DNA from: Bryobacterales bacterium
GTDB taxonomy: Bacteria; Acidobacteriota; Terriglobia; Bryobacterales; UBA6623
DNA: 64,000 nucleotides
Direction of reading: 5' to 3'
Assembly (NCBI GenBank): GCA_965226435.1
Contig: CBDDCY010000012.1
Coordinates: 553,138-617,137 of the forward strand
Numbering within the stretch: the first letter of the stretch is position 1; the number at the start of each line of letters is the position of its first letter. Made by a program: the position numbers and the translations under genes. Of this stretch, positions 3,056 through 56,618 are shown in pieces. Under the pieces are notes generated by a model. It was not told the origin of the DNA. It did not search any database and saw nothing but the letters and a program-made list of their open reading frames with translations.

Positions 3056-5117
3056 AACTGCATCTGTCGGCGACAGCGGCCTTGATAGCCCTTCTGGTTG
3101 TCTCGACGGCGCCGCCCGCGCTTTCCCAACCCGCGGACCTGCGCCCCTTATTTCCGTCACGGGCTGATATCCATGTCTCCACCGGCCGGCTGGCTCGGAT
3201 CGAGTTGGCGCCCGAAGTGTTGTCGGCCTGTCGAGCCGATCTCTCCGACTTGAGGATCATCGACGCCGCCGGTCGCGAGGTCCCCTATCGCATCGACAGC
3301 AACTTCGCGGGCGGGGCCGAGCGCCAAGTCGAGCGAAGTTTTCCCGCCGAGCTGCTCGAGGTGGACCGCCAAACCATCGAGCGCGACGCGGGTCCGCCGT
3401 TGCGTCGCGAAACCTATGAACTCGCCGCGCCGCCGGAACCCTCGCGGACCGGCGCTTGGGACCTGGTCTTTGAAAGTCGCCGCCCGCGCTTCGTCCGCCG
3501 AGTGACTCTCGAGACCCGACGGAGCGACGGGGCCGTTGCGGTCTTACGTGGAGCGTCGATCTTTCGGCTGGGGTCCTCATCGCGGGAAAAAGCGTACCTC
3601 ACGATCGAGGGTGGTGGGCTCGATCGGGTGATCGTCACGCTCGAAGGCGAGGAAAATTTCTTTCTCGAACCCGACTTTCGATACGAAGAGTCACTGCTGA
3701 TTCCCGATGAGCGCGTTGCCGTCGAACTCATCGAGGTTGGCCGAAGCGAAACGGCCGGGCAAACGACGATTGAGTTGGCTCGTCCGCGGGGTCTGGTGCC
3801 CGCTGCTCTACAGGTCGCGACCTCGACGCGCACGTTCAACCGCCGCGCGCGGGTTCGAGACCAGGGCCCGGGCGGGGGCGATCGAGAGTTGGGTCGGCGA
3901 GCCGTCTACCGCGTACCCGGTTTTACCACCGCCGAGGAGCTCGAAGTGCCGATCTCGCCCGCCCGCGGCGATCGGCTCGCAGTGGTGATCGACAACGGCG
4001 ACAGTCCCCCACTCGAAGGTCTGCGTTTTCAGGCGATCGTTCGCCGTCCGGCGCTGGTCTTCGCGCTCGAAGGCACGGGCCCCCGACGAAGTCGCCGGGA
4101 CCCTCTACTTTGGCGGCGGCCGAGCGCACCGGCCTCGTTACGACATCGAGCAAACGATCCAAGCCGCCGCGCCGGCCAAGGGCGGCGAGGAGCGCTATGC
4201 AACCGGCTCGGTTGGGTCCGGTCGAGGCCAACCCGGTTTTTGATGCCGCCCCAATACTTGGCTTCGCGATGCGTCCCGGCGCGGAAATCGATCCTCGAGA
4301 ATTCACGCACCGTCGCCGTATCGAGGCCGACCCCTCTCGCCCGAGGGCCTTAACCGTTTGCGGCTCGGCCTGGATGATTTGGCGCACCTGCGCGGCGATT
4401 TGGCGGGACCTGCGCATCGTCGACGACGAATCGCGGCAATGGGCTTATCTCGTCGAGCGTGATGTCGACCACGAGTTTCACCCGCTGAATATCGGAGCTC
4501 GCGAATCGATCGACACCGCCTCCCATTACCATTTTTCTCCGCCCGTCGCGCCGGCCGTTGTCGACCGCATTATGCTTACGTCCGTCGTGCCTTATCTCGA
4601 TCGCCCCTACCAACTGCGTGCGAAGCGCGGCGAGCAAGAGATACTTCTCGGGCGAGGGCGACTCACCCGGGCGGCCATGGGGAGGGCGCCGGCCTCCGGC
4701 AATGGAGACGCGATTACCATCGAATTCTCTCCCGGTCCGGTGGATTCGTTGGAGCTGATCATTGAAGACGGCGACGACGCCCCGCTGGTGTTGAGCGAGG
4801 TCGTCGGGCGCTTCCCGGTGAGCGATGTCTATTTCGCGGCGCCGGCGGGCACGTACTATTTGCTCGTCGGGCACCCCGAAGCCACCGCGCCGCGTTATGA
4901 GCTGGCACGAGTGAGGGATTTGGTCCTAGCGGTCCCCAGCGCCGCCGCCGGCACAGCGCCCCTGACCGAAAACGAAGCGTTCTCCCCGGCCACCCGCCTA
5001 ACGTCGGGAAGCGGCGTGCAACAAACTCTGCTGTGGATCGCTTTAGGCCTGGCGGTCGTGTTTCTGACCGGCCTGACTCTGCGTTTGGCGCGGAAAGAGC
5101 AAGTGTCGGCCGATTAA
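3052..5117 (+). pseudogene. DUF3999-family secreted/anchored protein with about 4 frameshifts clustered in 4080-4410
   Basis: The ATG at 3052 overlaps the upstream stop (ATGA). Signal peptide MKLHLSATAALIALLVVSTAPPALS. Motif LSDLRIIDAAGREVPY and a C-terminal TM helix (LLWIALGLAVVFLTGL). The sensible reading goes frame 1 -> 2 at C5 (4080-4084, giving DEVAGTLYFGGGRAHRPRYDIEQ), then -> 3 near 4200 (ARLGPVEANPVFDAAP), -> 2 near 4338 (PEGLNRLRLGLDDLAHLRGDLA), and -> 3 at G3 (4405-4407, DLRIVDDESRQWAYLVE). DUF2339+DUF3999 is a known conserved gene pair. Confidence 0.55.
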
Positions 5118-20172: not shown

Positions 20173-20276
20173 GGGGCTGTGAAAAAATGGGAGTCCACTT
20201 CGCGCCGGATGCGGTTACTGATTCAATGGAACTTATTCGGTCGGCGCTCGGGACAGCCCCATTTTTTCACAGCCCC
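20173..20276 (-). repeat. MITE-like palindromic repeat, copy 1 (inverted relative to copies 2 and 3)
   Basis: Termini ggggctgtgaaaaaatggg...cccattttttcacagcccc. Its reverse complement aligns along the full length with the copies at 46313-46421 and 48847-48954. Confidence 0.85.
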
Positions 20277-20329
20277 GAGGGCACGGCTTCAGAGGGTCGT
20301 TATTGTAGCGAGTCGCAAAGAGCCGCGGG

Positions 20330-27336: not shown

Positions 27337-27544
27337 GATCTTCAGATTGCTTTCCGGCGCCGCCTATAAGTTACGGTCTGACTGGCGCACTACACGAGGG
27401 CGGTGCAACCTCGCCCCGCCCGCGGCCGTCGTGCTGCCCCGCCGTGAACGACGACATTCGAGATGTTGAAGGGCGATGATAATGTCCCCTTGAGAGGGCG
27501 ATAGAAATGTCCCCTAATCTAAGGCTCCGAAGGAGGAGCCTAGA

Positions 27545-28825
27545 TTGGAGAGGACATGGATGAACGACAAGGAATTGAGACGGGGCGAGGTACTGGGCCG
27601 GGTGAAGCGAGGCGAGTTGAAGCTGAGCGAGGCGGCGCGGATACTCGATATCAGTTATCGCCAGACCAAGCGGATCTGGAGGCGCTACAGCGCGGGAGGG
27701 ACAAAAGCATTGAAGCACGGCAACGTGGGCCGGGTATCGAACCGCGCCAAGCCGGCGGAAGTTCGCAAGCGAGTGCTGCAACTGGTGCGCGAACACTACT
27801 CCGGCGAGCCGCACGAGCGCTTCGGGCCGACGCTGGCGGCCGAGCATTTGTGGACAGACCACGATCTGAAACTATCGGTGCGAACACTGCGGCTCTGGAT
27901 GCTCGCCGAGGGCCTGTGGAGCCGCCGCCGCAAGCGCCGGCCGCATCGCTCGCGGCGGCGGCGTAAAGCGCACTTGGGCGAGCTGATCCAGGTCGACGGT
28001 TCGCACCACGAGTGGCTCGAAGCGCGCGGGCGGAAAGGTTGCCTGATGAACTTCGTCGACGATGCGACCGGTCTGGCGCTGTGCCGTTTCTCGAGCGAGG
28101 AAACGACTTGGGCGGCGGCCGATCTGCTCGAAGCCTGGGTGCGTCAATACGGCGTTCCGAAGGCGTTGTATTGCGACTGGAAGAACGTCTACAAGCGCCG
28201 GCCAACGTCGCGTGAAGCGCTGGAAGGCATCGAGCCCGAGACGCAGTTCGGACGCATGTGCGCCAAGCTCGGCATTGGTATCATCGCCGCTTCGTCACCG
28301 CAAGCGAAGGGCCGCGTGGAGCGCCATCACGGCACCCATCAAGACCGCCTGATCAAGAAGATGCGGCTCAAAGGCATTGCCGATTACGAGGCGGCGAACC
28401 GCTATCTCGACGAGCAGTATCTGCCAGAGCACAACGCCAAGTTCGCCTCTGAGCCGTCAGCGGGAGCGGACTTTCATCGGCGCTTATCGAAGCGTTTGGA
28501 CTTGAAGTGGGTGTTTTGCTTGGAGGGAGAGCGGGTGGTGTCCAACGACCTGGTGGTACGTTTCGAGAACCGTTTTCCGCAGTTGAAACCGCAGCGCAAT
28601 CAGGCTCTGGGCGCAGGCGCGAGAGTAACCGTGCAGCAAGCGCGCGAGGGCGAGTTGCGGGTGGTGTTCGAGGGGAAAACGGTGGCGTTCGACGAGATCG
28701 CCAAGCCGCTCCCCAAGGTGCGGCCGGAGCCGAAACCGCGCCTGGCGCCGCAGCCGCGCACACCGCCGGCGAATCACCCTTGGCGCGCGCCGTTGAAGCC
28801 GAAAAAACGGGCGGCGACCGCGTGA
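27545..28825 (+). CDS. ISNCY-family (rve/DDE) transposase
   Basis: N-terminal HTH (LKLSEAARILDISYRQTKRIWRRY), then FGPTLAAEHL..., GELIQVDGSHHEWLE, and an rve core ending QAKGRVERHHGTHQDRL. A more likely start is MNDKELRRG at 27560. Confidence 0.8.
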   Translation: MERTWMNDKELRRGEVLGRVKRGELKLSEAARILDISYRQTKRIWRRYSAGGTKALKHGNVGRVSNRAKPAEVRKRVLQLVREHYSGEPHERFGPTLAAEHLWTDHDLKLSVRTLRLWMLAEGLWSRRRKRRPHRSRRRRKAHLGELIQVDGSHHEWLEARGRKGCLMNFVDDATGLALCRFSSEETTWAAADLLEAWVRQYGVPKALYCDWKNVYKRRPTSREALEGIEPETQFGRMCAKLGIGIIAASSPQAKGRVERHHGTHQDRLIKKMRLKGIADYEAANRYLDEQYLPEHNAKFASEPSAGADFHRRLSKRLDLKWVFCLEGERVVSNDLVVRFENRFPQLKPQRNQALGAGARVTVQQAREGELRVVFEGKTVAFDEIAKPLPKVRPEPKPRLAPQPRTPPANHPWRAPLKPKKRAATA

Positions 28826-28985
28826 AGAGGGCTGTGGAAATGACGGGGCCGTGGAAAACGAGGAAAACCCTCGGCAGCCGACGAGGAGCTTCGAACCTCA
28901 TCGCTCGGGTTTCCCACGTTTCCCCCAGCCCCTTGGAAATCGCTGTGCGATTCCCACATTCCCACAAGCCCCTACGACTACTATC
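28826..28985 (-). other. Conserved self-complementary non-coding module inside the IS (copy 1)
   Basis: Outer stem ctgtggaaatg (28832-28842) pairs with cattcccacaag (28957-28968). Hairpin 1: ggaaaacgaggaaaacc (28853-28869) with ggtttcccacgtttccc (28908-28924). Hairpin 2: ggaaatcgc (28935-28943) with gcgattccc (28947-28955). It is shared with 38812-38940. Strand is assigned because the A:C mismatches become G-U pairs on the minus strand. Confidence 0.55.
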
Positions 28986-29147
28986 CTTTTACTTAAAAGG
29001 GGACATTTCTATCGCCCTACCGAGGGGGACATTTCTATCGCCTCTTGACACTCTTCGCGCCGGCCGCTTGTGTCCGGCTTCACCGGGGGTTACACTGAAC
29101 CGCGAATCGAACAATCGACGGGCGGCGGCATTTAGGCCCGTCTCTGT

Positions 29148-37407: not shown

Positions 37408-37556
37408 CAGTGTCCTAGTACTGAACAGTCTCAGGGTATACTATTCTTCACCGCACCACAAGGGCCAGTCTTGTCTCATGCAAGATGAGCCTGAACGAGG
37501 AGTTTGTTTCTCACACAAGATGAGCCTGCAGGATCGGGGAGTGGGCATGCTGGGGA

Positions 37557-38802
37557 TTGACTATCCAAGTGCAAAACGCCGGCAAGTTGAATCCGCAACA
37601 GATCCGGCAGTTTCTCCACTCCAGCCAGGAGATTCGATTCAAAGGCAAAGGGCGGGCCGAGATTTACGCTTGGGTGGCGCGCACGCTTGGCCGGCACGGC
37701 TACAGCCGCCAGAACCGCGCCGACAAAGGGCTGCTGCGGCAGTATCTGGTCAAGATGACCGGACTGAGCCGGGCGCAAATCACGCGGCTGATCCAGCAGT
37801 ACCGGCAGGGCGGAGAACTCCAACCCGCCCGCTACCGGCGGCATCGCTTTGCCCGCAAGTACACGCCCGCCGACGTCGAACTGCTGGCGGCGGTGGACGA
37901 GGCCCACGAAACCCTCAGCGGCCCGGCCACGCGCAAGATCCTCGAGCGGGAATACCAGCAGTACCAGCAGCGCGAATACGAGCGGTTGGCGGGGATCTCG
38001 GTGGCCCAGATCTATCGCCTGCGGCGGCGCAGTGCCTACCGCCGGCGGCGGCTGCATTTCACCAAGACCCGGCCCACAGCGGTGTCGATCGGCGAGCGGC
38101 GCCGGCCCGACCCGCAAGGCCGACCCGGCTTTCTGCGAGTGGATACGGTGCATCAAGGGGATCGCGATGGCGTCAAGGGCGTCTACCACATCAATGCCGT
38201 GGATGAAGTCACCCAGTGGCAAGTGGTCGGCGCCACAGCCGCGATCAGTGAAGCCTGGCTGGAGCCGTTGCTGAAAGCCATGATCGAGCAGTTTCCCTTT
38301 CGTATCCGCGGCTTCCATTCCGACAACGGCAGCGAGTTCCTCAATCGCACGGTGGAGAAGTTATTGAACAAGCTGCTGATCGAACAGACCAAGTCGCGTC
38401 CGCGGCACTCCAATGACAACGGCTTGGTGGAATCGAAAAACGGCGCGGTGATCCGCAAACACATGGGATATACGCACATCGCGGCGCCGCACGCGGGGCG
38501 CATCCAGCGCTTCTACCAACAGCACTTCAATCCCTATTTGAATTTCCACCGGCCCTGCGGACAGCCCGAGATCAAGACCGACGCCAAAGGCAAGCAGAAG
38601 CGGGTGTATCGCCACTACCAGACGCCTTGGGAATCTTTCGAGCAGTTGCCCGAGGCCGCCCGGCTACCTCAAGCCAGGGCACACGCTTGAGGCTCTGGGC
38701 CGCATTGCCCAGGCGGAAAGCGACACTGCGGCGGCGCGCCGGATGCAGCGAGCCAAGCACAAGCTGTTTGCCAGTTTCCGGTCCGCGAACACGCCGTGCT
38801 GA
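37557..38802 (+). pseudogene. rve/DDE transposase with one frameshift near 38655-38661
   Basis: Core motifs RVDTVHQGD, GFHSDNGSEF and SNDNGLVESKNG. The frame-3 ORF stops at 38690, but the family-typical C-terminus (GYLKPGHTLEALGRIAQAESDTAAARRMQRAKHKLF) continues in frame 1 to the TGA at 38800-38802. Confidence 0.7.
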
Positions 38803-38811
38803 ACAGCAGGA

Positions 38812-38940
38812 AGAGGGCTGTGGAAATGGCGGGCGGTGGAAAACGAGGAAAACCAAAACCAGGTTTCCCTTCGTTTCCCACCGCCCTTGGAAATCGCTCC
38901 GCGATTCCCCCATTCCCACAACCCCGACGACGATTCTCCC
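38812..38940 (-). other. Conserved self-complementary non-coding module inside the IS (copy 2)
   Basis: It has the same three stems as 28826-28985: outer 38818-38828 with 38911-38921, hairpin 1 38838-38854 with 38862-38879, hairpin 2 38889-38897 with 38901-38909. The hairpin-1 loop is 7 nt instead of 38 nt, and the hairpin-2 loop is tcc instead of tgt. Confidence 0.55.
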
Positions 38941-39057
38941 CTTCCCAAATCAAAACCAAAAAACCAGAAAGGAGCCCCAGCTACTCAAAAAGCCCCAACC
39001 CCCGTCTTCAGGCTCATCCTTCGATGAGAAAATGCTGGGCCTCGACGGAAAAAAAAT

Positions 39058-40113
39058 TTGCATTGCTTGCAACAAGTTAGCGCGCCGGACGCCCCCTTGG
39101 TCTCGGTCATCGTCGTCAATTGCAGCCGCCGTGATCTACTCGATGATTGCCTGGGCTCGTTGCAATGTCAGTACTACCAGCCGTTCGAAGTGATCGTCGT
39201 GGATAACGGCTCGACCGACGGCTCGACCACCCTGTTAAAGGACTTTCCGCTTTCGAGTCTTCAAACCATTGAAAATAAAACGAATGTCGGCTTCTGCGTG
39301 GCCAACAACCAAGCTCTGACTTTGTGCCGCGGAACCTACGTCGCCCTGCTCAACAACGACGCCGTAGCCGACCCGGCGTGGCTCGGCGAACTGGTCAAGA
39401 CCCTAGAAGATCGGCCCGAATTCGGCATGGCCGCGTCGAAAGTACTGGCGTATGACTCGCCCGACGTGATTGACAAATCGGGCCACCTGATCTATCTCGA
39501 CGGTCAGAATCGCGGCCGAGGGTCCGGCGAAATCGACCGCGGACAGTACGACCACGTCGAGGAAATCGCCTGGCCCGACGGCTGCGCGGCCTTCTATCGC
39601 CGCTCTCTTTTGGAACAACTCGGAGGCTTCGACGAAGACTTCTTCGCCTACGCCGACGACGCCGAGCTGGGCTTGCGCGCCCGCATCGCGGGTTGGCGTT
39701 GCCTGTCCGTCCCGACCGCCGTCGTTCGACATCGCCTGGGAGCGACTCTCGGACGCCATTCCGAGCAACGCCTGTTTCTCATCGAGCGCAATCGAATTTG
39801 GTTGGCGGTGAAGTTGTTCCCTCTACGCCTGCTGATCCTCAACCCGCTCTACACGGCGGCCCGCTTCCTCGCCATGGCGGCGGCCTGGGCGGGGGGCCGC
39901 GGCGAGATCTCGCGCGCCGTCTCGTCGACTTCGCCGGCGCGACTGCTACAATGCCTCGTCAGGGCGCATTGGGCGGCGCTGCGGGGGCTTCCAACGATGC
40001 TGAGAAAGCGTCGAGAAACTCGAAGCCACCGTAAGCTGTCCGCTTCGGAAACCGCCCGCATGATTCGGCGTTTTCGAATCCCCCTCGCCGACCTCGTTGG
40101 GAAGGCTCGATAA
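39058..40113 (+). CDS. GT2-family glycosyltransferase
   Basis: VSVIVVNCSRRDLLDDCLGSL...VIVVDNGSTDGS, then LLNNDA and a DxD-like YADDAEL. The start is 29 nt from the IS right end. Confidence 0.8.
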   Translation: MHCLQQVSAPDAPLVSVIVVNCSRRDLLDDCLGSLQCQYYQPFEVIVVDNGSTDGSTTLLKDFPLSSLQTIENKTNVGFCVANNQALTLCRGTYVALLNNDAVADPAWLGELVKTLEDRPEFGMAASKVLAYDSPDVIDKSGHLIYLDGQNRGRGSGEIDRGQYDHVEEIAWPDGCAAFYRRSLLEQLGGFDEDFFAYADDAELGLRARIAGWRCLSVPTAVVRHRLGATLGRHSEQRLFLIERNRIWLAVKLFPLRLLILNPLYTAARFLAMAAAWAGGRGEISRAVSSTSPARLLQCLVRAHWAALRGLPTMLRKRRETRSHRKLSASETARMIRRFRIPLADLVGKAR

Positions 40114-55203: not shown

Positions 55204-56618
55204 GAGCTATAACCATAAGTTGTGGATGAGCCTCTGAGGGGAGGCGGCGTATCCTGACGATTGAGGAAGCAACTCAATCGTTTTCTGGAAAGGAACAAGG
55301 AGGATACGCCATGAGTCAGTGTGAAGCTGCTGAGAGCAGCAGTCAAGTCAACCCCCAAGTCATTGATGGAAAGGAACGCTCGCCCTTGGATGAGGTGCTG
55401 CGCCAAGGAGCGCGCCAGATGCTCGTCAAGGCCGTGGAAGCCGAAGTGACCGCCTACATCGAAACGCATCAGCACGAAGTCGACCAGGACGGCCGGCGGC
55501 TGGTGGTGCGCAACGGTCACGCCCGCGAGCGCACCATCGTCAGCGGCGTGGGGCAGCTGAAGATCCAGGCGCCGCGGGTCGACGATCGCCGAGTCGATGA
55601 GCAGGGCCGGCGCTTTCGTTTCACTTCCCAGATCCTGCCGCCGTATCTGCGGCGCACGAAGAGTGTGGAGGAGTTGATCCCCTGGTTGTACCTGAAAGGG
55701 ATCTCGACGGGCGATTTCAGCGAAGCGCTGGAGGCCTTGCTGGGGCCCGACGCTCCGGGCCTGTCGGCGACGACGGTGGTGCGTCTCAAAGACGTCTGGC
55801 GCCGCGAGTACGAGGCTTGGTCAAAGCGTGACCTCAGCGGCCAGCGGTTTGTTTACATTTGGGCCGATGGCATCTACTCGAATGTTCGTCTGGACGATGA
55901 ACGGCAGTGTTTGCTGGTTGTGATGGGAGCACTCGAAGACGGTCGCAAGCAACTGCTGGCGGTGCACGACGGCTTTCGCGAAAGCGAACTGTCGTGGCAG
56001 GAGTTGCTGGAGGACTTGAAACGGCAGGGGCTCGAGCTGCCGCCGAAGTTGGCGGTGGGCGACGGAGCGATGGGGTTTTGGGCGGCACTGCGGAAAGTCT
56101 ATCCGGCGACCGGTGAGCAACGCTGCTGGCTCCACAAGACGGCCAACGTGCTCAATAAGCTGCCGCAGAGCATGCAGGGCAAAGCCAAGCAGGCGCTGCG
56201 CGACATCTATCTTGCCGAGAGTCGGCAGACGGCGGAGGCCGCTCTGGACCGTTTCAAGAACCTATACGAGAAGAAGTTTCCCAAAGCGGTCGAGTGCCTG
56301 GAAAAAGACCGCCAAGTGCTGCTGGCTTTCTACGACTTTCCGGCCGAGCACTGGGGGCACTTGCGGACGACGAACCCGATCGAGTCCACCTTTGCGACGG
56401 TCCGTTTGCGGCAGCGACGAACGAAGGGTTGTGGCAGCCGCGAAGCGTCGTTAACGATGGTCTTCATGCTGGCCCGCCAAGCCGAGCGCCACTGGCGACG
56501 CCTGAACGGTTCGGAAGTGATTGTTCATGTCTTAGAGGGAAAGGTTTTCTAAGGATGGATTGATGGTTCAGGAAAACGCCGCCTGACCTCGCCCATCCAC
56601 AACATTTGACAATATCTC
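55204..56618 (+). mobile_element. IS256-family insertion sequence (1415 bp) with a 9-bp target site duplication
   Basis: IRs gagctataaccataagttgtggatgagc and gcccatccacaacatttgacaatatctc. Direct repeat gttgtacag at 55195-55203 and 56619-56627. Confidence 0.9.
55311..56552 (+). CDS. IS256-family (mutator-type) transposase
   Basis: 413 aa. Family motifs LDEVLRQGARQMLVKAVEAEV, YIWADGIY, AVGDGAMGFW, RCWLHKTANVL and TTNPIESTF. Confidence 0.9.
   Translation: MSQCEAAESSSQVNPQVIDGKERSPLDEVLRQGARQMLVKAVEAEVTAYIETHQHEVDQDGRRLVVRNGHARERTIVSGVGQLKIQAPRVDDRRVDEQGRRFRFTSQILPPYLRRTKSVEELIPWLYLKGISTGDFSEALEALLGPDAPGLSATTVVRLKDVWRREYEAWSKRDLSGQRFVYIWADGIYSNVRLDDERQCLLVVMGALEDGRKQLLAVHDGFRESELSWQELLEDLKRQGLELPPKLAVGDGAMGFWAALRKVYPATGEQRCWLHKTANVLNKLPQSMQGKAKQALRDIYLAESRQTAEAALDRFKNLYEKKFPKAVECLEKDRQVLLAFYDFPAEHWGHLRTTNPIESTFATVRLRQRRTKGCGSREASLTMVFMLARQAERHWRRLNGSEVIVHVLEGKVF

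Follow-up and report, generated by a model that had tools for sequence, protein, structure and literature searches.

We have identified, in a 64,000-nucleotide stretch of the genome of a Bryobacterales bacterium (contig CBDDCY010000012.1, positions 553,138 to 617,137 of the forward strand; hereafter the window), two insertion sequences (ISs) that carry the same folded module directly behind their transposase genes. The two elements are referred to here as IS-A and IS-B, and the modules that they carry as copy 1 and copy 2, respectively (Table 1). The module is a portable noncoding structured cassette of mobile DNA, positioned just inside one IS end. It is built as a three-way junction of 120-150 nt, in which P1 is the closing stem, P3 a hairpin of 10 bp and P2 a hairpin whose length varies; a single-stranded tail with a period of three nucleotides lies on the 5' side.

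The two host elements are clearly different. IS-A is a member of the ISNCY family, its transposase scoring 384 bits with the NCBIfam model NF033594 (ISNCY; cutoff 250), and it is bounded by doubled terminal repeats, GGCGAT(A/G)A(A/T)AATGTCCCC, with a right terminus that ends in TTGACA. The transposase of IS-B reached only 79.5 bits with NF033577 (IS481), below the cutoff of 224, and its match to the Pfam rve domain lay just under the gathering score; the most fitting label for IS-B is that of an unclassified rve-type IS with a relationship to IS481 and IS3. Six independent insertions, with flanks that part after ...GAGAAAATGCT, define its right boundary. A first-pass annotation of the window had claimed that the terminal repeats and transposases of the two elements differ, which agrees with our inverted-repeat search, with the NCBIfam matches and with BLASTP (E = 1.6). 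Thus, the shared module cannot be dismissed as trivial similarity between close relatives, since BLASTP gave no alignment between the two transposases. The C-terminal 50 residues of an intact 410-aa homologue of the IS-B transposase (P0125) align in another frame of the window copy, which places a frameshift near 38655-38668 and leaves the last 46 codons out of frame relative to the intact 410-aa homologues. The same alignment confirms the corrected stop codon that had been proposed, a TGA, and the module starts 10-13 nt past it. Because of this frameshift, the window copy of IS-B is probably inactive.

Table 1. Coordinates of the two module-bearing insertion sequences of the window and of their parts (the strand given for module parts is the folding strand)
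Feature	Position	Strand	Remarks
IS-A, ISNCY-family host of copy 1	27464-29050	+	about 1587 bp
ISNCY transposase	27560-28825	+	421 aa; stop codon 3 nt ahead of module
Module copy 1, in the ISNCY element	28829-28981	-	tail at 28973-28981
Copy 1 P1 arms	28829-28843 and 28956-28972	-	
Copy 1 P2	28846-28931	-	38-nt apical insert
Copy 1 P3	28935-28955	-	loop TGT
IS-B, host of copy 2	37467-39036	+	1570 bp
IS-B target duplication	37462-37466 and 39037-39041		5 bp, GGGCC
IS-B left inverted repeat (IRL)	37467-37493		
IS-B second subterminal repeat	37509-37530		
IS-B transposase	37557-38802	+	rve domain, distantly IS481-like; true stop 38800-38802
Module copy 2	38815-38934	-	three-way junction and 5' tail on the folding (minus) strand
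Copy 2 P1 arm nearest the transposase stop	38815-38829	-	plus-strand letters GGGCTGTGGAAATGG; partner 38910-38925
Copy 2 P2, long length-variable hairpin	38831-38886	-	loop of 7 nt, AAAACCA
Copy 2 P3 hairpin	38889-38909	-	plus strand GGAAATCGC-TCC-GCGATTCCC; minus strand GGGAAUCGC GGA GCGAUUUCC
Copy 2 P1 arm nearest the IS right end	38910-38925	-	plus-strand letters CCATTCCCACAACCCC
Copy 2 single-stranded period-3 tail	38926-38934	-	folding strand AUCGUCGUC; plus strand GACGACGAT
Flank enriched in A+T, adjoining the copy 2 tail on its 5' side (folding strand)	38935-38960	-	candidate promoter or recognition region (weak evidence)
IS-B right inverted repeat (IRR)	39009-39036		

That the two elements carry one and the same module, as first proposed from the letters alone, was borne out by pattern search, alignment and a covariance model. 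Patterns for the outer arm and the short hairpin matched only at about 38815-38925 and 28829-28972, with counts far over the shuffled expectation, and the covariance model R1 scored copy 2 at 125 bits (E = 6e-28) and copy 1 at 93 bits (E = 3e-20), with no third full copy found by it within the window. On the plus strand, copy 2 reads GGGCTGTGGAAATGG / C / GGGCGGTGGAAAACGAGGAAAACC-AAAACCA-GGTTTCCCTTCGTTTCCCACCGCCC / TT / GGAAATCGC-TCC-GCGATTCCC / CCATTCCCACAACCCC / GACGACGAT. Aligned to each other, the copies are near-identical except for one 31-nt gap inside P2. The finer differences noticed earlier hold as well: the first hairpin (P2) has a loop of 7 nt in copy 2 and of 38 nt in copy 1, the loop of the second (P3) is TCC in copy 2 and TGT in copy 1, and pairing the arms by hand shows the A·A mismatch of copy 1 where copy 2 has an A-T pair and a bulged T. 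Elsewhere in the window, an intergenic perfect 20-bp inverted repeat with a 66-nt spacer (20173-20277, plus strand; GGGGCTGTGAAAAAATGGG...CCCCATTTTTTCACAGCCCC) has arms resembling the module P1 (GGGGCTGTGGGAATG); it folds as DNA at -31 kcal/mol (z = -6) and scores just 13 bits with the covariance model (E = 0.5).

The folding strand is the one opposite the transposase gene, that is, the minus strand of the window, and on this point the first-pass annotation had to be reversed: it had described the stems on the plus strand, whose "mismatches" correspond to G·U (or G·T) pairing in the minus strand. Single-sequence folds favour the minus strand both as RNA and as DNA. For copies 2 and 1, the z scores of the RNA folds were -9.8 and -7.8 (minus strand) and -6.0 and -3.9 (plus strand), with none of 200 shuffles as good; copy 2 on the minus strand reached -83.4 kcal/mol as RNA and -42.9 kcal/mol (z = -8.2) as DNA, against -34.1 kcal/mol for the plus strand as DNA. 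Homologous copies point the same way. In a first set of 25 diverse copies, G·U occupied 96 alignment cells when the minus strand was read, versus 5 for the plus strand, and the consensus fold had an energy of -56.3 kcal/mol on the minus strand versus -26.9 on the plus. In a second set of 93 distinct metagenomic copies the G·U cells numbered 335 versus 35 (95 versus 35 outside four boxes described below), the conserved A·C mismatches of the plus strand coinciding with G·U on the minus strand.

These counts bear directly on an explanation in which the module is a plus-strand element in the 3' untranslated region of the transposase mRNA, serving as a stabiliser, a terminator or a translation-stalling hairpin past the stop codon. 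Such an element would need no promoter of its own, the module does start 0-40 nt past the stop codon in most elements, and the plus strand also folds significantly. However, the plus strand has A·C where the minus strand has G·U, its consensus energy is half that of the minus strand, no U-tract is present, and in two loci (L096 and L135, discussed below) the module lies upstream of the gene, in the opposite relation to the mRNA. We consider this explanation very improbable.

The compensatory changes that the first-pass annotation had suggested looking for were found in both alignments. By RNAalifold and pair counting, 97.3% of the cells in the 25-copy set were paired and 16 of 42 pairs showed compensatory changes; none of 500 shuffles did as well, and pairing dropped to 36-57% when the partners were slid by 1-3 columns. 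The 93-copy set, which was retrieved independently of P3, had 96.4% of its cells paired and 26 of 42 pairs compensatory, again with 0 of 500 shuffles as good, although fitting this alignment to the minus-strand model inflates its pairing counts somewhat and leans them to the minus strand; the slid controls over both sets stayed at 36-62%. Compensatory changes affect 7 of the 12 pairs of P1 in the 25-copy set, and both P2 helices covary in either set. P3 is invariant among the 25 copies because the search pattern fixed it, and it covaries in 6 of 10 pairs among the 93; in addition, compensatory P3 variants occur in the Granulicella and Acidisarcina plasmids, which come from cultured strains. 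The module is a structured single-strand element, whether RNA or single-stranded DNA (ssDNA), under selection.

Several details of the consensus recur in copies from unrelated carriers. One box, 5'-GGGAA/UUUCC-3', recurs in each of the four helical segments; the pair at its third G is a conserved G·U, present in about 45-80% of the sequences, the others having mostly A-U. The tail directly 5' of P1 has a period of three, usually (G/A)UCGUCGUCG / GUCGUCGUCG, and is seen across families; its conservation is position-specific (T-C-G-T-C-G-T-C-G), covering positions 1-10 of the covariance model. Similarly, the P2 loops are alike across the IS families (ISNCY, IS-B, IS21 and IS481). P2 itself varies greatly in length, from 4-6 bp in some IS21 copies through the usual ~25 bp to more than 25 bp plus an insert of ~35 nt in ISNCY copies. 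In the IS21-type loci L031, L034, L052 and L115, where the P2 of the junction is short, a long P2-like hairpin (GCGGATGGAAAAGTGGAAAACC...GGTTTCCCACTTTCCCACCGC) lies just outside P1, and hairpin modules appear to have been shuffled in these loci. In IS3-type loci (L131, L165, L166, L177, L205 and L211), an extra small hairpin with an A/T-rich loop, e.g. GAGGAT-TAAATTC-ATCCTC, stands directly 5' of the GTC tail on the folding strand.

A coding role for the module was rejected, as had been argued at first from the 31-nt length difference: no frame is kept across copies, and P2 varies in length by indels that are not multiples of three. Gene callers extend open reading frames (ORFs) into it inconsistently. 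The transposases of IS-B relatives (P0121-P0131) are lengthened to 470-519 aa by read-through of the stop-poor module, an annotated IS481 transposase ORF spans the whole module in locus L059, and in locus L037 a coupling-protein ORF enters the start of the module; all of these extensions are annotation artefacts. Searched with the entire window, Rfam 15 yielded nothing at gathering thresholds; for 38700-39100 with E <= 10, generic hairpin (miRNA-type) matches alone came up, with 13-23 bits against thresholds of 39-168. Transposon guide RNAs (omega, bridge and seek RNAs) were also considered and rejected; the usual strand is antisense and the carriers span rve and DEDD enzymes, and the idea was dropped because the loops are common to several families. 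Complementarity between loops and inverted repeats was looked at by eye only. No description of the motif was found in full-text searches of the literature, and where its membership could be tested, the module has the defining features of no close known kind.

How widely is the module distributed? A genome scan (one genome per species, queried with the P3 core) returned at least 110 loci, and a metagenome scan was run with a pattern in which P3 was left unconstrained. The carriers include ISNCY, IS481, IS3, IS21, IS110, IS6-like and unclassified rve elements together with a type-IV-secretion/conjugation operon. Hence the first-pass description of a noncoding structured cassette shared across distinct ISs stands, while its number of two IS types has to be raised to at least six families, with a conjugation operon in addition. 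ISNCY carriers span 37-98% transposase identity, the one at 37% being L095; relatives at 80% and 71% have the module at the same place, with stems that have changed yet still pair. Relatives of IS-B carry it from about 60% to 96% transposase identity. Among the matches listed, about one third of the copies follow neither an ISNCY nor an IS-B transposase; these other contexts are behind the IstB ATPase of IS21, behind an IS481 or IS110 transposase, or between the genes of a type-IV coupling protein and a VirB11-like ATPase (the conjugation-operon loci L037 and L070). The IS3-family carriers (352 bits) and the IS6-like carrier came from the metagenome scan. Modules mostly cluster by IS lineage, with some mixing, and therefore largely co-evolve with the IS.

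With respect to hosts, the module appears to be restricted to Acidobacteriota among the matches listed, all of which (at least 110 loci) were titled Acidobacteriota save one metagenome-assembled genome of Dormibacterota. They comprise Bryobacterales, Terriglobia, Acidobacteriaceae, Vicinamibacterales and other groups, and at least 14 of them are located on a single chromosome, OZ253444.1. Only 2 of 72,556 plasmid records matched, pACIX903 of Granulicella tundricola MP5ACTX9 (NC_015058.1, about 3912-4033) and pACPOL4 of Acidisarcina polymorpha SBC82 (NZ_CP030843.1, about 88304-88403), and none of 50,697 phage records did. An enterobacterial ISNCY relative from Klebsiella, at 37% identity, has no module. 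Neither do two IS256-family elements, one in locus L005 and the other in the window (55311-56552). The latter looks intact (55220-56603; Transposase_mut, 215 bits) and has inverted repeats GTTGTGGATGAGCC / GGCGAGGTCAGG...CATCCACAAC, the right one of which follows the stop codon after just about 50 nt.

The orientation of the module is as constant as its place. In 107 non-redundant contexts it abuts the 3' end of a convergent gene, and six apparent exceptions were checked individually: three were artefacts, one was a neighbouring insertion and two were real. Loci L095, L225 and L212 were rejected as sense-orientation cases since they involved spurious antisense ORFs, and so was L163, where the module belongs to an IS-B element and an IS256 has landed 12 nt past it. 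The two real cases are an IS481-like element (L096, inverted repeats at 1637-1661 and 2845-2869) and an IS6-like one (L135, inverted repeats at 591-604 and 2577-2590), both with the module inside the left end, where it is upstream of, and in sense with, the transposase gene. A single rule covers all cases: the folding strand always reads 5' to 3' inward from the nearest IS end.

Fixed place, fixed polarity and the tracking of IS lineages also speak against a fragment of some third element caught by chance in both window ISs, one of the outcomes that the first-pass annotation had foreseen, and they bear on a related explanation. In this one, the module is an independent selfish repeat, similar to repetitive extragenic palindromes (REPs) or to MITEs (miniature transposable elements with inverted repeats) and mobilised for example by a Y1/HUH enzyme, which would insert preferentially behind transposase genes without any function for the IS. 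Its layout of a one-strand tag plus palindrome, with GTAGTCGTAG or GTCGTCGTCG directly 5' of P1, parallels the GTAG- and CGTC-tagged superfamilies of REPs (PMC3733652); moreover, the P1 arms resemble terminal inverted repeats, and a few copies have no adjacent IS gene (L061 and L121). Nevertheless, there is neither a target-site duplication nor homology past P1 and the tail, the modules mostly track the IS lineage despite some mixing, and position and polarity are fixed relative to the IS end. Furthermore, 120-150 nt far exceeds the 20-40 bp of REPs, no Y1 transposase lies between the paired copies in L182, and nearly all copies lie inside ISs rather than being scattered between genes. We regard a selfish repeat as quite improbable.

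The MITE and REPtron classes were also checked as such. The suggestion that the module might occur free-standing as a MITE was right in so far as MITE-like derivatives exist: L049 (about 3190-3520) consists of inverted repeat, module and inverted repeat, and L182 (1835-2745) is an inverted duplication of two IS3 right ends with a module in each. These are transposase-less deletion products of ISs that keep the module, and for the module itself the MITE class was rejected, as no target duplication surrounds either window copy or the relatives. A REPtron was rejected as well; the element is 120-150 nt long and inside ISs, and the one inverted pair examined, that of L182, encloses no Y1 transposase.

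Some further observations concern the ends of the host elements. The TTGACA that ends IS-A (29045-29050, plus strand) is a perfect outward-facing -35 hexamer, as expected for a junction or hybrid promoter, and is also found in the relatives L001, L014, L027 and L053. About 60 nt inside the right end of IS-B, at 38967-38975 on the plus strand, there is an outward-facing Shine-Dalgarno-like GAAAGGAGC (GCTCCTTTC on the other strand), which is conserved in place among more than 15 relatives of IS-B; the IS itself has no start codon after it, so that translational fusions to genes in the flank might arise. The immediate surroundings of the module, up to about 12 nt away, have received other ISs: in L163 (9282-9430) an IS256 lies beside the P1 end, and in L105 (4838-4957) an ISNCY end replaces the GTC tail. 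The module edge may be an insertion hotspot.

Taken together, the observations call for a function that is exerted on the single strand reading inward, is independent of transposition chemistry and depends on something specific to Acidobacteriota. We tentatively favour, as possible rather than probable, a protein-bound RNA, made by inward transcription, that would insulate or regulate the transposase. Transcription would enter or start at the adjacent IS end, from the A+T-rich flank or from neighbouring host promoters, and yield the folded junction, so that the cassette would act as RNA. A host protein would then bind the four G·U boxes, and the resulting complex would stop, process or stabilise the inward transcript. 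At the usual right-end position, this RNA would be antisense to the transposase gene and could shield or tune it against antisense transcription; at the rare left-end position it would form the transposase leader and guard against read-in. Either way, transposase expression would be insulated or tuned whatever the insertion site. Such a function being independent of transposition chemistry, unrelated ISs in the same host phylum could each have captured and kept the cassette. RNA is preferred to DNA because G·U is frequently interchanged with A-U and with G-C, which is typical of RNA helices.

Several points weigh against this explanation. G·T pairs are tolerated in ssDNA and, as given above, the DNA fold prefers the same strand, thus the strand evidence cannot separate RNA from ssDNA; the lean of the 93-copy alignment to the minus strand has to be remembered here too. 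No U-tract hairpin of an intrinsic terminator was found at either module on either strand, the only sites being an internal chance site and an inverted-repeat site, though the 3' side of P1 on the folding strand does begin with a pyrimidine run, UYYU at +1 to +4, and its first 8 nt contain 2.9 T on average, compared with 2.0 further on. Neither copy has a consensus match to a sigma-70-like promoter on either strand, a consensus that may not be the host's. The flank from -24 to -5 on the folding strand has an AT fraction of 0.6-0.7 against a background of about 0.42 (142 distinct instances), while the best -10-like hexamers upstream of the tail are scattered in 105 non-redundant flanks and form no fixed box; for this reason, no promoter is claimed. 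Only the two left-end cases separate the inward rule from a plain rule of "antisense to the gene". Moreover, four conserved boxes, a near-invariant P3 or a period-3 tail would be superfluous in a simple insulator or terminator, and an antisense insulator has no obvious use in the conjugation operons of L037 and L070.

Perhaps the module is instead a self-contained small RNA gene acting in trans, for example as a protein sponge or an anti-defence decoy, for which the IS merely offers available noncoding space. The four repeated G·U boxes resemble multimeric protein-binding sites, and loops and boxes are generic rather than IS-specific. The A+T-rich 5' flank and the short 3' pyrimidine run would suit a gene of its own, and so would the presence in ISs and a conjugative operon, i.e. 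in mobile DNA generally, and the many copies per genome, as on OZ253444.1. On the other hand, a strict inward polarity, seen in about 150 contexts, is not required of a free-standing gene, and no recognisable promoter or terminator appeared in the scans. Overall, a trans-acting RNA seems improbable.

The main rival to a protein-bound RNA is a signal in ssDNA, similar to single-strand origins (sso) or to G4-type single-strand initiation (ssi) sites, which we consider not very likely. Host primase or RNA polymerase would be recruited by the folded inward-reading strand and would prime the complement of DNA that is displaced or circularised in copy-out/paste-in transposition, or transferred by conjugation. 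IS3, IS21 and IS110 form circular intermediates, and the carriers comprise the rve-type ISNCY, IS481, IS3 and IS21, the DEDD-type IS110 and a type-IV-secretion operon. The repeated GTC beside the hairpins may recall the recognition trinucleotides of primases. A figure-eight intermediate needs replication to become a double-stranded DNA circle (PMC7780238). Like the sso elements, which are structured, orientation-specific and noncoding and lie beside a replication or relaxase gene, the module is a strand- and orientation-specific fold in noncoding DNA that is common to unrelated elements, and it is phylum-restricted among the matches listed. When a fork comes in from the adjacent IS end, the folding strand is its lagging-strand template, and the transposase-less derivatives L049 and L182 keep the module. 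Against such a signal stand the two IS256-family elements without module, IS256 being copy-out/paste-in as well, and the absence from the consensus, by reading, of known sso motifs (the ssoA motifs RS_B and CS-6 TAGCGT). In addition, the need for a priming site is not known to have been demonstrated in any IS, and frequent G·U-type pairs are more typical of RNA. The donor end of IS2 is IRR, which would circularise the other strand. In its more specific form, where the module would be a host-specific cis-acting signal priming the complementary strand in circle-forming ISs and conjugative elements of Acidobacteriota, we hold it unlikely.

The usual picture of an IS is that of a transposase gene with two ends, to which family-specific RNAs have been added only recently. 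Here, the transposases of the carriers are no longer alignable and belong to two catalytic folds, yet the module is kept nearly box for box. Sharing across families, apparent restriction to a phylum and fixed polarity together point to a strong selective need that is set by the host and not by transposition chemistry. An RNA insulator, a protein sponge or an ssDNA priming site would each expose a new interface between host and transposon. If priming of ssDNA were true, this would be the first replication-priming element in insertion sequences, swapped among IS families as sso cassettes are among rolling-circle plasmids. The module could also serve as a marker that is specific to the mobile DNA of these soil bacteria, a major group that has been studied poorly. 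On the practical side, it makes gene callers over-extend transposase ORFs, and it could join RNA and repeat libraries.

Among known systems, sso cassettes depend on the host range and are exchangeable between unrelated replicons. The sso elements of rolling-circle plasmids and ICEs (e.g. ICEBs1 sso1 and those of pBAA1/pTA1060) and the ssi or primosome-assembly sites resemble the module in being noncoding, about 100-300 nt long and composed of several stem-loops, with one active strand and orientation. In sso, too, structure outweighs sequence and the element is placed just past a mobile-element gene; sso1 of ICEBs1, for example, has three stem-loops, starts 6 bp past nicK and works in one orientation only (PMC4595007). 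Unlike the module, sso and ssi sites are not known to have been described in insertion sequences. Integron attC sites are likewise conserved in structure and strand-selective in their single-strand folds across unrelated units, with a central part that varies in length, but they are defined by R'/R'' core sites (GTTRRRY) and extrahelical bases and follow cassette ORFs beside an integrase, none of which is found in the module.

Closer to the protein-bound RNA that we favour are the structured RNAs inside ISs which limit or insulate the transposase, namely RNA-OUT and fold-back inhibition in IS10 and the antisense RNAs of IS30 and IS200, whose orientation is fixed to the IS end as well. These controls are family-specific and overlap the 5' end of the transposase gene or its ribosome-binding site, whereas the module is found in at least six families, usually beyond the 3' end without coding overlap, and has no defined promoter. 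The omega RNA of IS200/IS605, the bridge RNA of IS110 and the seekRNA of IS1111 are also structured noncoding RNAs beside the transposase gene and within the element; however, each serves one transposase family, is transcribed in sense, includes the element end and has variable loops that match target or donor.

REPs and bacterial interspersed mosaic elements, with their REP-associated tyrosine transposases (RAYTs), share with the module a strand-specific palindrome, a 5' tetranucleotide tag and a multicopy nature (PMC3733652), and in the module GTAG-like as well as CGTC-like tails occur, both at the same position. Yet REPs are single hairpins of 20-40 bp that are extragenic, spread chromosome-wide and associated with Y1 transposases, and no RAYT was seen with the module. 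Finally, the "mobile/repeat sequence candidates" of noncoding RNA screens are multicopy, covarying and transposase-associated, and their RNA or DNA nature is undecided (PMC11109978). The example given there has one long stem, repeats of UYCCGG and an orientation that is not consistent, in contrast to the three-way junction, the fixed polarity and the single phylum of the module. Compared with all these systems, it is the combination of at least six IS families, one phylum among the matches listed, a fixed inward polarity and a fourfold G·U box that makes the module unusual.

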